From an uncultured delta proteobacterium (GTDB taxonomy: Bacteria > Desulfobacterota > Desulfuromonadia > Desulfuromonadales > BM103): DNA of 64,000 nucleotides. Positions 13,928-22,383 of the stretch are shown one piece after another (position 1 is the stretch's first letter; every line of letters starts with the position of its first letter). A model generated the notes under the pieces. The model was not told where the DNA came from. It worked only from the letters and a program-made list of their open reading frames with translations, and made no database searches. Both the position numbers and the translations under genes were made by a program. Where the stretch lies: the NCBI GenBank assembly GCA_963715335.1, contig CAVQRZ010000043.1:9657-73656 (forward strand). Direction: 5' to 3'.

Positions 13928-13957
13928 TTGACACAATCGTGCCAGAAATGGCACAAT
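13928..13957 (+). promoter_or_regulatory. Probable sigma70 promoter of the activator gene, overlapped by operator CGTGCCA-GAAA-TGGCACA (13938-13955)
   Basis: TTGACA at 13928, weak -10 CACAAT at 13952; palindrome matches the two downstream sites. Confidence 0.6.
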
Positions 13958-13994
13958 CTTGCGTCACATCTACTCAAGACGACCCTGGAGAGCT

Positions 13995-16265
13995 ATGGGC
14001 CCGATCATTACCGTCAAGGAAAACTGTCGTAAATGCTACGCCTGCATCCGCAACTGTCCGGTCAAGGCGATCCGGGTCCACCGCAATTATGCCGAAGTCA
14101 TCAGCGACCGATGCATCGGTTGCGGCAACTGCGTCAAGAGCTGCTCGCAGAAAGCCAAGGTGATCGCCGACCATGTCGGCGAGTGCCGGAACCTTCTCGC
14201 TGGTGAGCAGCCGCCGATTGCAATACTCGGCTGTTCGCATCCGGCCTTTTTCAACGACATCCGTTCAGGCCAGCTGGTAACCGGCCTGCGTCGTCTAGGT
14301 TTTGCAGAAGTCCACGAAGGCGCCGCCGGCGTTGACCTGTTGCGCAAAAGCTACCTGAAGAGCGTTGAACGGAACAAGCCTTATCCTCTGATAACGACCC
14401 ACTGCCCGACAATCGTCGACCTGATCGAACGACACTATCCGCAACTGCTGAAGAACCTGATCGAGCTGGTTTCGCCGATGGTGGCGATTGGCCGTTTCAT
14501 CAAAAGCCGCACCAGCAAGGACACGCCGGTCGTCTATATCAGCTCCTGCATCGCCGGCAAGTTCGAGATTACCGCAGAGCAGACCGAAGGGGCGATTGAC
14601 TGTGTCATTTCCTACCAGGAGCTCAGCCAGATGTTCAAGTACCGCAACCTTGACCTCAAGCGCCTCGGCGAAACGGCTTTTGACGGCATGGAACCCAAGC
14701 GTGGCAGACTCTTCGCAATTTCCGGGGGACCATTCAAATCCTTCGGCATCGCCAGCGAAATTACCAACAAGGACTACGTCGAGACCGAGGGAGAAGAGAA
14801 CGCTCTGGAAGTCATTAAGGATCTCGCTGCCGGCCGAATTTCACCAAAGGTGGCGGATATTCGCTTCTGCAACGGCGGCTGCATCGGCGGTCCGGGCAAA
14901 AACAACCGCCTGACCACATTTTCCAAACGCAACCTGATCATTGACCAGCACCTTAACCAGAACCTTTATTATCGCACCAAGTCTACATACATCGCAGACA
15001 TACCCTTGCCGGACTTCACCAGGACCTTCGCCAACAAGCATGAGCGGCCCAAAACTCCCAGCAGCGAACGATTGCGCCAGATCCTGCAGGCGACCGACAA
15101 GTATGAAACCAAGGACGAGCTGAATTGCGGTGCCTGCGGATATACCACTTGTCGTGAACACGCTGTCGCTGTCTACCGGGAATTGGCCGAGGGAGACATG
15201 TGCCTCCCTTACTCTTTGAAGCGCCTGGAAGAAGACCACATCAAGCTTACCCAGAAATATGAACTTGCCCAGCATGCCCTGAAACAGGAATTCGGTGAAA
15301 CCGCTATAATCGGCCACGACCCCCGTACCCGGGAGGTCATCAAACTGATTCATCAGGTTGGTCCGACACCGACCACGGTCCTGATCCGTGGCGAGAGCGG
15401 AACCGGCAAGGAACTCACGGCCCGGGCCATCCATGCCCAAAGTCAGAGAGCCGACAAGCCCCTGGTTTCAATAAACTGCACGACCCTGACTGACAGTATT
15501 CTGGAAAGTGAACTGTTCGGTCACAAGAAAGGTTCTTTCACTGGCGCGGTCAATGACAAACGCGGCCTCTTCGAAGCAGCTGACGGCGGAACGATTTTCC
15601 TCGATGAAGTTGGCGATATCACCTCCAAACTTCAGGTGGAACTCCTGCGCGTCCTCGACAGCGGTGAAATCCGCCCGGTCGGCGGAAATGCGTCGACCAA
15701 GGTTGACGTCCGCCTGATTGCAGCAACCAACCGCAACCTCGAGCAGGGCGTCGCTGAAGGTTGGTTTCGCGAGGATCTCTTTTACCGTCTGAACGTCTTT
15801 ACCATTACCATGCCGCCACTGAGGAATCGACTCGAGTCACTCGATGGGCTACTCCAGGCATTCATTGCCAAAGCGAGCACCCGGGTCAACAAGACCCTGT
15901 TTGGCATTGAAGACCGGGCGATTCAGGCCATGCGCCAATATCACTGGCCTGGCAACATCCGTGAACTGCAGAACATCATCGAACGTGCTGCTGTCCTGAC
16001 CCGCGATGAGATCATCCGGCTGGAAAACCTGCCGGTTATTTTTGGCGAACTGGTTCTGCAGGCCCCGGGCGACAAGAGCAACGGCACCCTGCGGACACAG
16101 CGCCAAAAGCATCTGAACCAGGTTGAAAAAAACCTCATGACCCGCTACCTGCGCGAAGCTGAAGGCAATATTTCGGCGGCAGCGCGACTGGCTGGAATTC
16201 CCCGTCGCACCTTTTACCGCATGCTTAATCGCAATGGTCTCAATGGAACCGATTTCAAGGCCTGA
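13995..16265 (+). CDS. Sigma54 enhancer-binding protein with 2x[4Fe-4S] ferredoxin, [FeFe]-hydrogenase-like and FeS sensory domains
   Basis: Two CxxCxxCxxxC motifs; TTHCP, SSCIAGKFE, CNGGCIGGPG; NCGACGYTTC..MC; GESGTGKE, GSFTGA, FLDEV, WPGNIRELQN; C-terminal Fis-type HTH; GGAG RBS. Confidence 0.92.
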   Translation: MGPIITVKENCRKCYACIRNCPVKAIRVHRNYAEVISDRCIGCGNCVKSCSQKAKVIADHVGECRNLLAGEQPPIAILGCSHPAFFNDIRSGQLVTGLRRLGFAEVHEGAAGVDLLRKSYLKSVERNKPYPLITTHCPTIVDLIERHYPQLLKNLIELVSPMVAIGRFIKSRTSKDTPVVYISSCIAGKFEITAEQTEGAIDCVISYQELSQMFKYRNLDLKRLGETAFDGMEPKRGRLFAISGGPFKSFGIASEITNKDYVETEGEENALEVIKDLAAGRISPKVADIRFCNGGCIGGPGKNNRLTTFSKRNLIIDQHLNQNLYYRTKSTYIADIPLPDFTRTFANKHERPKTPSSERLRQILQATDKYETKDELNCGACGYTTCREHAVAVYRELAEGDMCLPYSLKRLEEDHIKLTQKYELAQHALKQEFGETAIIGHDPRTREVIKLIHQVGPTPTTVLIRGESGTGKELTARAIHAQSQRADKPLVSINCTTLTDSILESELFGHKKGSFTGAVNDKRGLFEAADGGTIFLDEVGDITSKLQVELLRVLDSGEIRPVGGNASTKVDVRLIAATNRNLEQGVAEGWFREDLFYRLNVFTITMPPLRNRLESLDGLLQAFIAKASTRVNKTLFGIEDRAIQAMRQYHWPGNIRELQNIIERAAVLTRDEIIRLENLPVIFGELVLQAPGDKSNGTLRTQRQKHLNQVEKNLMTRYLREAEGNISAAARLAGIPRRTFYRMLNRNGLNGTDFKA

Positions 16266-16315
16266 CACAAAAGTGAGACAGCTCTAAGACAAAAATTGTC
16301 ATATATTAACCATGT

Positions 16316-16399
16316 TGTGCCATTTATGGCGCAGCTATATCGCCCATCAATACAGCGTTTTCCCCGCACGACTCAATATGATGCGCCATAAATGGCACA
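16316..16399. promoter_or_regulatory. Pair of 18-bp putative enhancer sites in exact inverted orientation
   Basis: TGTGCCATTTATGGCGCA (16316-16333) and its exact reverse complement TGCGCCATAAATGGCACA (16382-16399). Confidence 0.8.
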
Positions 16400-16486
16400 C
16401 TTCAGGCCAAGTGGTCGCAACAGCCCCAACCACCTAAAACCGCGCCAAATCAGCTTTTCACGAGAAAGACAGCGAAACCGTAGCTC

Positions 16487-16502
16487 TGGCACGATAATTG
16501 CT
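16487..16502 (+). promoter_or_regulatory. Sigma54 -24/-12 promoter
   Basis: TGGCAC-GATAA-TTGCT, consensus sequence and spacing. Confidence 0.88.
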
Positions 16503-16512
16503 CAGAAACTTG

Positions 16513-16607
16513 AGTAACTGTCTAGGGACAATAGTTTCCATTCTAAGGATTCCTGCTCCCTTTTTTGCGCCGCCACGGAACCTCTCTCCTCCGGGCGGCG
16601 TTTTTTT
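16513..16607 (+). ncRNA. Candidate sigma54-dependent small RNA, about 95 nt
   Basis: Lies between the sigma54 promoter and an intrinsic terminator; no ATG/GTG-started ORF; C/U-rich single-stranded tracts. Confidence 0.65.
16568..16607 (+). terminator. Intrinsic terminator with C/U-rich loop
   Basis: CGCCGCC-A-CGGA [ACCTCTCTCC] TCCG-GGCGGCG then T7. Confidence 0.85.
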
Positions 16608-16718
16608 ATCTGCCATTTTAGCCATCAGCGCGCATGGATTGATTTTTAGTTCGCCAAAAAGACTGTCGTCCGCTATCATATTAAAAACTGTCAACCACCT
16701 CTTTTTCCAAACAACTTC

Positions 16719-19064
16719 ATGCCAAGTACGCAGAGTCCAAAAATAGGCATAACAACCCTTGAAGACATCAGTGCGCTGATTCTCCAGTCACATGATCTCG
16801 ACGAGACTCTACGCAATATCGTGACACTCGTTGCGCGGCGCATGCGCACGGACGTCTGCTCGATTTATTTGCTGGACACAGACAACGTGACCCTGCGTCT
16901 GCAGGCATCCAAAGGCCTGTCTCGCAAAGCAGTGGGCAAAGTCACGCTACGCATCGGTGAAGGTCTCACCGGCATGGCGGCCCAAAAACGGCACGCCATC
17001 GCCATCGAAGAGCCGCAAGAACATCCAAGCTACCGATATTTCAAAGAAACCGGTGAAGAGCGCTTCCACTCGTTCCTGGGAATCCCACTTTTCGACCGTA
17101 ACAATCCGCTTGGCGTGATCGTTCTGCAAACCAAGGAACCACGCCAATTCAACAAGGAAGAGATCAGCGCCCTGGCGACGATTGCCTTCCAGGTCTCGTC
17201 GATTGTTGTCAATGCACGCCTGCTCGACTCGATTCGGCAACATCAGGAAGAGAACCTGCGCGCCAGCGAAGCTCTGGTCAAGGCCCAGCAGTCGATGTCG
17301 GACTCTGATCGCTTGGCAGATGACTCGACAGGAAACATTCTCTCGGGCAGGATAGCCTACCCCGGGGTCGTCATAGGCCCGGCGGCCATCCTCGAAGAAA
17401 GGTTCGGTTTTGCCGACATCCTGGACGAAGAGGGAGTAGATATCCAGGCCGAGTTGCAAAGTCTCGAAAGCGCTCTGGAGAAGACCTGTATTCAAACTAT
17501 TTTCCTCGAGAAACGCGTCGCGGAGCGTCTGAGCGAAAGCGATGCGGCAATCTTCCACACCCATCTGATGATTCTTGAGGATCGCAGTTTCATCGCAAAG
17601 CTGCAGGATAAAATCAAAGACGGGCACAGTGCTGCATACGCCCTGGAAAAAACCGTCGCCAATTACCTCGAAGCCTTTGCGAAGATGGACGACCCCTATC
17701 TTCGGGAACGTGCAGCCGACATGGAAGACATCGGCCGACGTATCTTGGCCAACCTGATCGGCGATGGCTCGGAGCATACCCTGCACCTGAAACATCCCAG
17801 TGTGCTGGTCGCCAGGAAGATCCTTCCTTCTGACATGGCCTCGCTCGATAATGATCAGATCCTCGGCATCATTACCGAAGACTGTGAAACCAACTCACAT
17901 GCCGTGATCATGGCGAAAGCGATGGGCATCCCGGCAATCGTCGGTGCCCGCGGGGCGGTGAGACAAATTGCGCCGGAAGACGACCTGATCGTGGATGCCA
18001 ACTCGGGGCGTATTTACATTAAACCGATGGAGGCGATCAGAGAAGAATTCCAGAGGCTCCTTGCGGATCAAACGCGCGAACTGTGCCGTCTTGAGCAGTA
18101 CCGCGATCAGCCTGCTGAGACCTCTGATGGCGAAAGGGTCACTTTACGCGCCAACATCGGCCTGATCAGTGACATCGTTATTGCAAAACGTTTTGGCGCC
18201 GAAGGCGTAGGCCTCTATCGAACCGAATTCCCCTACATGGCCCGGGGCGATTTTCCAGACCGGAACGATCAGTACGAACTGTACAGCAAAGTCGTCAGGG
18301 AATTCGAGGGCCAGCCTGTGACAATTCGGACCCTCGATATTGGTGGCGACAAGGGGCTCCCCTACTTTAGTCCACCGAAGGAAGATAACCCGTTTATGGG
18401 CTGGCGTTCCGTGCGCGTCTCTCTGGACAACCGGGACATTTTCCGTACCCAAATAGAGTCAATTCTCATGGCCGGTTGCCACGGCCCGGTCAAGCTGCTC
18501 TTCCCCATGATCTCGAGCCTGGAAGAAACCCGAGCCTGTCTTGAAGTCGTTGAGGAAGCCCGGGCCAATCTCAAAAAGGACGGGTTGGACTGCCCAGGCA
18601 AAATCCCCGTCGGCGTCATGATTGAAGTGCCTGCCGCAGTAAGACTGGTCCCGCAACTTGCCAACGAAGTTGACTTTTTCGCCCTGGGCACCAACGACCT
18701 GATCCAATACCTGCTCGCCGCCGACCGCAACAACCCTCTGGTCAGCAAATACTACGATCCACTGCATCCTGCCGTCCTCCATGTCATCCATGAAGTCACC
18801 AGCACCGCATTGTCGAGGGGCAAGGGCGTAAGTCTTTGTGGAGAAATGGCAACCGACCCCATGACCCTGTTGCTTTTGCTCGGCATGGGCCTGAGAGAAT
18901 TCTCCATGCCAGCGCCCTTCATCCCGCGGATCAAGGCTTTTCTGAAAAGCGTCTCCCTGGAAATGGCTTGCCAACGCTACGCGGAAATCAGCACCATGGA
19001 CAGCAGCACGCAGATTCGTCAGCATCTGGCCGAGGTGTTGAAGGATGTTAATCTAGGGGACTAG
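16719..19064 (+). CDS. ptsP: GAF-containing PEP-protein phosphotransferase (EI-Ntr)
   Basis: N-terminal GAF (GEGLTG, FHSFLGIP); NSHAVI phospho-His; GLYRTEF, RTLDIGGDK, GTNDLIQY, CGEMA. Confidence 0.95.
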   Translation: MPSTQSPKIGITTLEDISALILQSHDLDETLRNIVTLVARRMRTDVCSIYLLDTDNVTLRLQASKGLSRKAVGKVTLRIGEGLTGMAAQKRHAIAIEEPQEHPSYRYFKETGEERFHSFLGIPLFDRNNPLGVIVLQTKEPRQFNKEEISALATIAFQVSSIVVNARLLDSIRQHQEENLRASEALVKAQQSMSDSDRLADDSTGNILSGRIAYPGVVIGPAAILEERFGFADILDEEGVDIQAELQSLESALEKTCIQTIFLEKRVAERLSESDAAIFHTHLMILEDRSFIAKLQDKIKDGHSAAYALEKTVANYLEAFAKMDDPYLRERAADMEDIGRRILANLIGDGSEHTLHLKHPSVLVARKILPSDMASLDNDQILGIITEDCETNSHAVIMAKAMGIPAIVGARGAVRQIAPEDDLIVDANSGRIYIKPMEAIREEFQRLLADQTRELCRLEQYRDQPAETSDGERVTLRANIGLISDIVIAKRFGAEGVGLYRTEFPYMARGDFPDRNDQYELYSKVVREFEGQPVTIRTLDIGGDKGLPYFSPPKEDNPFMGWRSVRVSLDNRDIFRTQIESILMAGCHGPVKLLFPMISSLEETRACLEVVEEARANLKKDGLDCPGKIPVGVMIEVPAAVRLVPQLANEVDFFALGTNDLIQYLLAADRNNPLVSKYYDPLHPAVLHVIHEVTSTALSRGKGVSLCGEMATDPMTLLLLLGMGLREFSMPAPFIPRIKAFLKSVSLEMACQRYAEISTMDSSTQIRQHLAEVLKDVNLGD

Positions 19065-22306: not shown

Positions 22307-22383
22307 TGGCGCGCCCGGTAGGAGTCGAACCCACAACCCCCAGATCCGAAGTCTGGTGCTCTATCCAATTGAGCTACGGGCGC
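22307..22383 (-). tRNA. tRNA-Arg, anticodon UCG, CCA encoded
   Basis: GCGCCCGTAGCTCAATTGGATAGAGCA-CCAGA-CTTCGGA-TCTGG-GGGTT-GTGGGTTCGACTCCTAC-CGGGCGC-GCCA; upstream TTGTAG..TAGAAT promoter-like sequence. Confidence 0.97.

Follow-up and report, generated by a model that had tools for sequence, protein, structure and literature searches.

A candidate sigma54-controlled small RNA that may stand in for HgtR in damping the TCA cycle of Desulfuromonadales

Results

The activator gene

The window is a stretch of 64,000 nucleotides of DNA from an uncultured delta proteobacterium. On its plus strand, nt 13995–16265 encode a sigma54 enhancer-binding protein (EBP), assigned by Pfam, by sequence and fold matches in the PDB, and by motif counts. 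Pfam recognizes a Fer4 dicluster, Fe_hyd_lg_C at residues 89–300, FeS at 376–405, Sigma54_activat at 438–604 (PF00158, E 2e-68) and HTH_8 (PF02954). The protein is composed of two [4Fe-4S] ferredoxin clusters, an [FeFe]-hydrogenase-like domain, an FeS domain, an AAA+ domain with a GSFTG loop, and a Fis-type HTH; the architecture given in a preliminary description of this DNA (two ferredoxin clusters, an H-cluster-like domain, FeS, AAA+, and HTH) is thereby confirmed. The GAFTGA-type loop reads ELFGHKKGSFTG, as in sigma54 enhancer-binding proteins of the NtrC/NifA type, and a G[AS]FTG loop is present in 93 of 97 activator orthologues of the same order, the Desulfuromonadales. Activator matches occur in 193 of the 251 genomes of the class, nearly always in single copy. 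Judged by its sequence, the protein is orthologous to the EBP whose gene precedes hgtR in Geobacter.

Operators and the sigma54 promoter

Two 18-mers of the consensus TGTGCCA-N4-TGGCACA follow the activator gene, a distal enhancer site at nt 16316–16333 and a proximal one at nt 16382–16399, both found by pattern and by matrix scan. They are exactly inverted and 66 nt apart from start to start, as had been described, with 48 nt between the arms. The sigma54 -24/-12 promoter, TGGCAC-N5-TTGC at nt 16487–16501 of the plus strand, begins 88 nt past the second site, where about 90 bp had been estimated, and is conserved; its expected +1 is near nt 16513. A third operator, also noted earlier, lies at nt 13938–13955 in the activator's own promoter (nt 13928–13955, plus strand, sigma70-like), between TTGACA at nt 13928 and the -10 region. 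Autorepression is likely.

In the window the operator pattern occurs just at these three sites (6 strand-matches; chance mean 1.56, with 2 of 100 shuffles reaching 6). When a matrix of 205 sites was run over the whole genome, the three operators were the top three (scores 23.0, 23.0, and 22.3), followed by an intragenic match at 18.2. No further operator joined to a sigma54 promoter, as expected of a wider activator regulon, was found among the 19 matrix matches in this genome. An operator precedes the activator in 82 of 87 loci of the order, directly behind TTGAC in 77 of them, and in 20/20 loci of the sister order (Geobacter and its kin). Among the loci with the RNA described below, 90 of 94 have at least one enhancer site and 73 of 94 have two or more; the sigma54 promoter is at the matching distance in 94 of 96, and the other two are near-consensus. 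The activator would be expected to bind the predicted palindromes and to activate the -24/-12 promoter.

A conserved predicted RNA behind the promoter

A small RNA of about 95 nt is predicted at nt 16513–16607 of the plus strand from fold, conservation, and covariation. In its predicted fold the sequence of nt 16514–16608 forms two hairpins and closes with T7 (z = -3.84; 0/200 shuffles as stable), and no plus-strand ORF of at least 20 residues starts inside it, which bears out the earlier statement that about 95 nt with no credible ORF end in a GC hairpin plus T7. The 5′ hairpin (nt 16524–16562, plus strand, from the MFE structure) is closed by GGG:CCC and has a variable interior. Its call relies on single-sequence folds, in which the GGG has its pairing partner within the 5′ domain in 94/94; RNAalifold on a MAFFT alignment recovered the terminator and not this hairpin. 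The intrinsic terminator (nt 16567–16607, plus strand) has a covarying stem of 10 pairs, with 96.2% of cells paired and two-sided changes at 7 pairs. The cells with two-sided change number 53 vs 10.3 in shuffled alignments, a value reached in 0/500 shuffles. The seed at nt 16580–16592 of the plus strand, the ACCUCUCUCC loop plus CUCC, is unpaired in the ensemble of this RNA and is complementary to the ribosome-binding sites GGAGGAGAGAG / GGAGAGAG at TCA genes. UCUCUCC is found in 92 of 94 RNAs, and CUCUCUCC in 83 of 94.

The preliminary description had asked whether orthologous loci keep the promoter and the RNA structure. Promoter and RNA are conserved as a unit in 96 of 103 assessable loci of the order. 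Since promoter and structure are conserved and no ORF is, the product behind the sigma54 promoter is very probably an RNA, as had been supposed. RNA and promoter persist in 4 genomes without an adjacent activator. The 7 RNA-less loci belong to one family; there the activators have the G[AS]FTG loop in 0/7 (vs 93/97) and the downstream operators are present in 0/7.

The Rfam search proposed earlier gave no family for the RNA at either gathering or E-value thresholds, and a tRNA was the only match over the window. No description of this RNA was found in the main texts of the open-access literature; genome papers could list it in their supplements. In a sediment metatranscriptome (8% of words), matches over nt 15600–17400 were short activator pieces from other organisms and one ptsP contig of 248 nt, leaving the RNA uncovered.

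Two other functions were considered and rejected: a CsrA sponge, for the RNAs carry 0–4 GGA each and these are located in stems, and a sense or antisense peptide, for no ORF is shared across homologues on either strand. A related proposal takes the conserved element for a small gene, in which the minus-strand loop GGAGGAGAGAGG is a strong ribosome-binding site before a 24-codon ORF (nt 16576–16502). This ORF and its purine-rich site do exist here, and 48 of 94 homologues have a start codon behind the site. However, the ORFs range from 2 to 89 codons and have no common sequence, 46 of 94 homologues have no start codon, on the plus strand just 2/94 have a start behind an SD-like site, and the stem changes are compensatory. 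Such a gene is extremely improbable.

The neighbouring gene ptsP

Gene ptsP (nt 16719–19064, plus strand; GAF and PEP-utiliser domains by Pfam) is a frequent neighbour of the RNA. A probable sigma70-type promoter of its own, the weak TCGCCA-N17-TATCAT, is located at nt 16651–16679 of the plus strand; a loose pattern for it matches in 27 of 68 ptsP-linked loci. The RNA sequence might be a cis-acting leader or attenuator that controls whether transcription from the sigma54 promoter continues into ptsP, which is downstream in 68 of 94 loci and here lies on the same strand at a distance of 112 nt from the terminator. Yet the RNA is just as conserved in the 26 of 94 loci with different genes downstream, no alternative fold disrupts the terminator, ptsP has its promoter-like site, and it is still in place in the 7 RNA-less loci. 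We regard a leader as highly improbable. As a target of the RNA, ptsP showed neither a seed site nor pairing. The functional tie to ptsP suggested in the preliminary description was not supported; ptsP is only a neighbour of the circuit.

HgtR in the sister order

The preliminary description named a parallel in Geobacter, and the published account agrees with it (PMC2817479). In the loci compared here, HgtR is encoded in the same slot behind the activator in 20/20 sister-order loci. Strong HgtR matches are found in 116 of 125 sister genomes vs 0/126 of the present order, and strong RNA matches in 55 of 75 genomes of the present order vs 0/75 sister genomes. Of 80 named loci, the RNA is present in 19 and HgtR in 29, and no locus has both. 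An hgtR ORF behind the promoter is absent from the 96 RNA loci, and an HMM search of this genome found no HgtR (best E 1.7). Weak HgtR-like matches occur in 43 genomes of the order (E 3e-9 to 9e-4).

The EBP–RpoN promoter–hgtR circuit of G. sulfurreducens (GSU3364; PMC2817479, PMC2725144) has an orthologous activator with 55–61% identity, the same operator consensus, and its promoter at the same position behind the activator gene. The targets overlap as well: HgtR sites are reported by name at gltA, acnB, icd, and ato (PMC2817479). The Geobacter output, however, is a DNA-binding repressor of about 61 residues, whereas here it is the RNA, whose control, unlike that of HgtR, would act on translation. 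In this genome, where HgtR is missing, the whole regulon still carries an upstream DNA box that overlaps the footprint published for HgtR; therefore the RNA would replace only the activator-driven arm.

Predicted targets in the TCA cycle

The genes gltA, acnB, mdh, ato, and fumA/B carry a ribosome-binding site of extended form, to which the CUCUCUCC loop of the terminator is complementary. Counting GGAGAGA before the start codon, we found the site at gltA in 20 of 21 RNA-bearing genomes vs 0/5 HgtR genomes, at mdh in 21 of 22 vs 1/5, at acnB in 14 of 22 vs 0/5, at ato in 14 of 20 loci vs 0/8 on the HgtR side, and at fum in 7 of 9 vs 0/5, genome counts that are not independent because the RNA lineage is essentially one clade. 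The background is 4 of 163 other genes, and 1 of 32 listed ORFs in the ribosomal-protein region. The icd site (19 of 20 RNA genomes, yet also 5 of 7 HgtR genomes) does not discriminate between the two and was dropped as evidence. Of the genes listed for HgtR, sdhC, oor, atp, and the nuoA-end genes showed no seed site where looked at.

An unsupervised scan of 3253 predicted genes ranked ato first. With the 13-nt seed, acnB ranked 1, ato 2, mdh 6, gltA 30, icd 36, and fum 37 among 3244, while a generic anti-SD control placed these six genes at ranks 533–834. Most loops read CUCUCUCCCCC and the targets GGAGGAGAGAG, with one mismatch beyond 8 nt; seed–target covariation gave no clean case. The 16S tail was not found in the assembly, and an altered tail as the source of the ribosome-binding pattern was rejected, as the background rates speak against it. 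Feedback of the RNA on its own activator was also rejected: GGAGAG is at the ribosome-binding site here, and the 7-mer is in 0/84 orthologues.

The RNA could be real and sigma54-driven and nevertheless have other targets or titrate a protein, the GGAGAGAG sites being an inherited trait of these genes, which are highly expressed, or belonging to another RNA. The icd site of HgtR genomes fits with inheritance, as does the restriction to one clade. Sites also persist in genomes of the order where neither activator nor RNA was found (gltA 10/11, mdh 7/9). Also, 88 of 94 RNAs have 1–3 GGA. Against this, five separate genes differ from the sister order over the low background given above, the GGA motifs sit in stems, and no other terminator loop in this genome has CUCUCUCC (159 occurrences screened). 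Most of the site-keeping genomes have a second RNA that carries the seed and is distinct from the one described here: such an RNA was identified in 5 of 7 tested genomes in which neither activator nor RNA had been found. We consider this explanation unlikely. The RNA has its own promoter, an intrinsic terminator, and no conserved ORF, and its exposed conserved seed matches conserved complementary mRNA sites, a correspondence qualified by icd and by the RNA-less genomes. The best reading is that it would be a trans-acting anti-Shine-Dalgarno sRNA damping the oxidative TCA cycle, a substitute for HgtR.

What the activator senses

The lysine of the CxxK motif anchors the 2Fe subsite of the H-cluster. 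In the activator the four cubane cysteines, C137, C185, C292, and C296, are invariant among 22 aligned proteins, but the lysine is replaced (SSCIAGKFE). Its position is Gly, Ser, or Ala in 89/89 proteins parsed from the order and 19/19 from the sister order. A lysine three residues past the second-motif cysteine is present in the aligned solved hydrogenases and in 28/28 distant sensor relatives parsed. No HydG was found in the RNA-bearing families (25 of 251 genomes of the class have it, all elsewhere), and HydF in this genome stayed below cut-off. Because the lysine is missing and the genomes are without HydG, the activator probably senses redox through its Fe-S clusters and not H2, and the earlier suggestion of H2 sensing through an H-cluster was not sustained. 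We presume that the domain resembles an H-cluster-less (Nar1/NARF-type) domain more than that of HydS.

Alternatively, the circuit could be as described while its activator is a genuine [FeFe]-hydrogenase of the sensory kind, with H2 bound at an H-cluster. The hydrogenase fold and the invariant cubane cysteines would suit such a sensor. Also, hgtR is induced on H2 and its authors proposed H2 sensing by the EBP (PMC2817479), and group C/D sensors likewise do without the proton-relay Cys and Met residues (PMC8163306). With the lysine substituted in every protein parsed from both orders and the maturases missing as stated, we hold this to be very unlikely. Group C/D HydS are the nearest outside relatives of the activator (35–40% identity) and share its three-part sensor of two N-terminal cubanes, H-domain, and C-terminal Cx2Cx4Cx16C cluster (PMC8163306, PMC5037454). 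The activator differs from HydS in having no PAS match, in its fusion to AAA+/HTH, in the loss of the lysine, and in hosts whose families (HydG) or present genome (HydF) lack the maturases.

Discussion

Our favoured reading, which we regard as likely, is a sigma54 switch leading to an sRNA that represses translation of the TCA cycle and stands in for HgtR. The Fe-S-bearing activator would bind at the pair of enhancer sites that follow its gene and, once its clusters report what may be an excess of reductant, fire the sigma54 promoter, the sole product of which would be the small RNA. Through the third operator it would limit its own synthesis. The CUCUCUCC loop would pair with the extended Shine-Dalgarno site GGAGAGAG, often GGAGGAGAGAG, of the mRNAs for citrate synthase, aconitase B, malate dehydrogenase, succinyl-CoA:acetate CoA-transferase, class I fumarase, and perhaps isocitrate dehydrogenase. 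The pairing would block their translation, probably with Hfq; an hfq gene is present in this genome. The RNA would thus fill the slot of HgtR under the same activator, operator, and promoter.

LuxO and CbrB are phosphorylated response regulators. Unlike CbrB and LuxO/SypG, the activator here has a fused Fe-S sensor. A sigma54 EBP with an sRNA output is also found in CbrB–PcrcZ–CrcZ of Pseudomonas, where crcZ lies directly behind cbrB as here (PMC5113210), and in LuxO/SypG–Qrr1 of Vibrio (PMC10162802). CrcZ titrates Hfq/Crc, whereas the present RNA carries a base-pairing seed, and neither CrcZ nor Qrr has an Rfam sequence match to it. RoxS/RsaE and FsrA of Bacillus and Staphylococcus are C-rich anti-Shine-Dalgarno sRNAs that repress TCA mRNAs (citrate synthase, SucCD) in response to redox (Rex, ResDE) or iron (PMC8216469). 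They show no homology by Rfam and differ in phylum, sigma factor, and sensor; here the seed is in the terminator loop. The best look-alikes of sRNA type in Rfam, MmgR/SuhB and ar14 of Alphaproteobacteria, share C/U-rich anti-SD loops and a terminator, a resemblance and not membership at 18.8 and 15.6 bits (E 0.23 and 1.6), far under the gathering scores of 41 and 58.8 bits.

On a wider scale, the balance tips slightly towards an ancestral redox-sensing sigma54 switch whose outputs were exchanged, HgtR in Geobacterales and an unrelated sRNA in Desulfuromonadales, over the same TCA genes. As parts of this exchange, five or six mRNAs would have acquired a longer Shine-Dalgarno sequence as a handle for the RNA, and where the switch was lost, a second RNA of the same seed would have been recruited under a lactate-operon promoter.

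The 2009 proposal that the activator senses hydrogen directly would be recast, since both its sequence and the missing maturases point towards a redox sensor with Fe-S clusters and no H-cluster. If the reading is true, this would be a first predicted regulatory RNA with named targets in an order of acetate-oxidising reducers of sulfur, metals, and electrodes, and would explain how the TCA cycle is throttled without HgtR in the RNA-bearing order. The exchange of outputs would be a clean natural replacement of a protein regulator by an RNA with sensor, enhancer, and promoter held constant, and the circuit would offer a rare chance to compare regulation by protein and by RNA like for like, with the same sensor and promoter on both sides.

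Organization of the locus

The activator ORF (13995–16265) encodes, by domain search, a ferredoxin dicluster, Fe_hyd_lg_C, FeS, Sigma54_activat and HTH_8. Downstream lie two 18-mer operators at 16316 and 16382, exact inverted copies of each other, and a sigma54 −24/−12 promoter sequence at 16487–16501. The 95 nt 3′ of this promoter (16513–16607) form two hairpins with T7 at the end (fold z −3.84). A third operator (13938–13955) sits behind TTGACA, inside the activator's own promoter. Each of the five elements named in the preliminary description (activator, inverted pair, promoter, hairpin RNA and third operator) is present in the window sequence. With a matrix from 205 orthologous sites, the three operators are the top-ranked of the whole 3.3-Mb genome, and no sigma54 promoter was found near any of the other 16 above-cut-off matches in it. 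A degenerate operator-like palindrome occurs at 16286–16302, directly after the activator stop codon; at least three downstream operator sites occur in 21 of 94 orthologous loci. The Rfam comparison proposed earlier matched the RNA to no family, and the sole Rfam match of the window is a tRNA gene at 22310–22383 (minus strand).

Conservation of the RNA

The activator was found in 107 of 151 genomes of its own order, Desulfuromonadales. Loci were retrieved for 106 of these, and three end too early, leaving 103 assessable. The RNA is found in 96 of them, behind a pattern-matched promoter in 94 and a near-consensus one in two. The terminator stem covaries: once one long and one duplicate sequence of the 94 are excluded, the remaining 92 align with 96.2% of cells paired, two-sided changes in 7 of 10 pairs, and 53 cells with such changes versus 10.3 in shuffles; slid controls are far lower. 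The conserved part is the loop, which reads UCUCUCC in 92/94 and is unpaired in 85/94 folds. A search of both strands across homologues yielded no conserved ORF. The recurrence of promoter and RNA, the stem covariation and this ORF result support the proposal that the product is an RNA. Judged from sequence, this order-wide, undescribed sigma54-dependent sRNA candidate is very probably transcribed. No transcript of it showed up in the one metatranscriptome compared, from sediment, whose matches do not reach the RNA. The gene after it is ptsP in 68 of 94 loci; because other genes or contig ends follow in the remaining 26, the element is independent of ptsP, and a functional tie to that gene is not supported.

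All seven assessable loci without the RNA come from one family, f5. Their activators have diverged (38–44%), the G[AS]FTG loop being found in 0/7 versus 93/97 elsewhere. The downstream operator is absent in all seven and the upstream one is retained in six. By its sequences, f5 is a case of joint loss of promoter, enhancer, RNA and sigma54-contacting loop. The f5 activator (loci L040–L046), which lacks a GAFTGA-type loop and retains the HTH and upstream operator, is probably a sigma54-independent remnant regulator.

Four further loci, L137–L140 (genomes G011, G031, G045 and G039), keep the RNA, a sigma54-type promoter and ptsP but contain no activator; two of them show remnants resembling the operator, and none were seen in the other two. 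A different enhancer-binding protein (EBP) may drive the RNA there.

The sensor domain

The N-terminal 422 residues of the activator give a confident model (pLDDT 86) with the [FeFe]-hydrogenase fold, whose four cubane cysteines do not vary across 22 aligned proteins. The H-domain motifs are THCP, SSCIAGKFE and DIRFC. In [FeFe]-hydrogenases, the Lys after the second Cys holds the 2Fe site. This Lys is retained in solved enzymes and 28/28 parsed distant relatives, and replaced in all parsed activators (89/89 own-order and 19/19 sister-order proteins). HydG was found in 25 of 251 genomes, including all 10 f5 genomes searched and none in any RNA-bearing family; HydF was not found in the host genome. 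Group C/D sensors tolerate the absence of the proton-relay Cys and of the two Met (PMC8163306). With the Lys replaced and HydG and HydF not found, the likeliest picture is an activator with ordinary [4Fe-4S] clusters that senses ferredoxin-pool redox or Fe-S/O2 status, any effect of H2 being indirect. The suggested redox/H2/Fe-S sensing is thereby narrowed to its Fe-S/redox part, and direct H2 sensing is not upheld.

Among 14 HydG-bearing sister-order genomes, 12 are not among the listed activator genomes; in that order, true [FeFe]-hydrogenase maturation and the hydrogenase-like sensor look anti-correlated.

HgtR in the sister order

In Geobacter sulfurreducens, a member of the sister order (Geobacter and its kin), the gene for the small protein repressor HgtR is reported to have an RpoN promoter, to be induced by H2 and to lie downstream of an EBP with an iron-only-hydrogenase-like domain (PMC2817479). 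PMC2725144 also mentions this EBP. An HgtR ORF of about 60 aa follows the orthologous activator in 20/20 sister loci (of about 106 activator-bearing sister genomes), with the same operator in all 19 having a parsed promoter. The Geobacter parallel drawn earlier, an activator beside sigma54-driven hgtR, agrees with PMC2817479 and with these 20 loci.

Class-wide, strong HgtR matches (E below 1e-14) occur in 116/125 sister versus 0/126 own-order genomes, 43 of the latter showing weak matches only. A profile of 20 HgtRs detects nothing in the host genome (best E 1.7). A covariance model of the RNA matches 55 of 75 own-order genomes strongly, and 75 sister genomes show three weak matches only. The 80 named loci divide into 19 with the RNA, 29 with HgtR and none with both, plus three EBP loci with neither output (one incomplete) and 29 distant relatives from other phyla. 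RNA loci include Desulfuromonadales, Desulfuromonas and Trichloromonas, and HgtR loci Geobacter, Geomonas and Oryzomonas; from these names we infer the order names of the two sides.

The weak covariance-model matches, at G203:C48:79783–79877 (minus strand, locus L142) and in G186 and G223, belong to one sister genus. At L142 a TGGCAC-containing stretch is followed by an RNA with two hairpins, a CCUCCUUUUCC loop and a terminator. It maps some 19 kb away from the activator and is possibly a distant relative or a separate anti-SD sRNA.

Predicted targets

When the terminator was matched, unsupervised, to 3253 genes from a rough gene call, the best-scoring duplex was with succinyl-CoA:acetate CoA-transferase (ato), and aconitase B came twelfth. 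The 11-mer complement GGAGGAGAGAG has three occurrences outside the RNA, two being the RBS of acnB and ato. GGAGAGAG lies upstream of 20 of the 3253 genes, including acnB, ato, icd, mdh and class I fumarase, and also precedes gltA, which the gene caller overlooked. It is on 6 of 13 TCA genes (hypergeometric 5.5e-11, the gene set picked after the scan). The 13-nt seed places six TCA genes at ranks 1, 2, 6, 30, 36 and 37 of 3244; a generic anti-SD control places the same six at 533–834.

GGAGAGA was counted within 20 nt of the start in chosen genomes, those bearing the RNA being mostly one clade. It precedes gltA in 20/21 RNA, 0/5 HgtR and 0/2 f5 genomes (two paralogous loci excluded), mdh in 21/22, 1/5 and 0/3, acnB in 14/22, 0/5 and 0/3, and fumarase in 7/9 RNA and 0/5 HgtR genomes. 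For ato, with loci obtained for 30 of 35 matches, the counts are 14/20 RNA loci (14/16 genomes), 0/8 HgtR and 0/2 f5. The background is 4/163 other genes in the same loci, and 0/84 for the activator's own gene. The icd site was dropped as target evidence, since HgtR genomes have it in 5/7, alongside 19/20 RNA genomes.

Pairing across a Shine-Dalgarno site implies repression. The RNA loop would pair over target RBSs and repress, with the same sign as HgtR; Hfq is encoded in the host genome. The published HgtR list (PMC2817479) includes gltA, acnB, icd and ato. We consider the full mechanism, a sensor-driven sRNA acting on TCA-cycle targets, reasonably probable.

The target site is absent in G022, G009 and three further f5 genomes. 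It is kept in the activator-less RNA genomes (gltA 4/4, mdh 3/3) and also in own-order genomes where neither activator nor RNA was found (gltA 10/11, mdh 7/9). For the latter genomes, one lead is that another RNA may take over at the sites: five of the seven tested contain a different terminator RNA whose hairpin loop reads CUCUCUCUCC (L464, L465, L469, L470 and L471, in G117, G034, G148, G048 and G107). Four sequences were inspected and the fifth is a 77% BLAST match; the RNA, at L464:698–791 and L465:1498–1600 (both minus strand), has two hairpins, the CUCUCUCUCC loop and a terminator. This RNA sits behind a LUD/CCG-domain (lactate utilisation-like) gene, a context unrelated to the activator locus, with TTGACA-N17-TATA and a TGGT-N3-ACCA box upstream in three genomes and no match in Rfam. 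A hint of seed-target covariation, no more than suggestive, comes from two f23 genomes whose variant loops match mdh over 11 nt.

Two host-genome (G000) genes were also observed. A nuoL-like gene at C1:110682 (minus strand) has an RBS with an 11-nt match to the RNA loop region. Monomeric icd, C22:85482–83259 (minus strand), is called as two pieces (522 and 247 aa), either a frameshift or an assembly error.

The GTATAC box

A GTATAC-N-GTATAC box overlaps the HgtR footprint, as deduced from primers in PMC2817479. In the HgtR-less host genome the box is upstream of gltA, acnB, icd, oorD, ato, sdhC, atp, nuoA, sfr and gntR (sfr, atp, nuo and oor labels read off translations), and additionally at a multiheme cytochrome operon. 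Its G000 positions are C6:16677; C22:127368, 85573 and 82095; C33:44466; C5:35623; C1:379464 and 120757; C9:148162 and 171654; and C19:5484 and 7591. The box precedes gltA in 17/21 RNA genomes. Of 30 genomes, 26 encode a GntR/FCD regulator, which has the box before its own gene in 24/26; four lack the regulator, and in the three of these that were checked the gltA box is absent. This regulator is likely the binder. Because the box persists across the regulon in an HgtR-less genome, the predicted replacement by the RNA is of the activator-driven arm, not of entire transcriptional control.

Relation to known systems

CbrB-CrcZ (PMC5113210) and LuxO-Qrr1 (PMC10162802) have a similar layout, and RoxS/RsaE (PMC8216469) has a similar seed type and targets, but by Rfam the RNA is a member of none. 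Passages of PMC5037454 and PMC3543383 contain nothing on it, and no description was found in the open-access literature searched. The RNA is a candidate for an undescribed regulator with a specific target set. The HgtR circuit shares its activator, operator and promoter, but its output is a protein there and a candidate RNA here. The surprise is this exchange of protein for RNA while the sensor stays constant.
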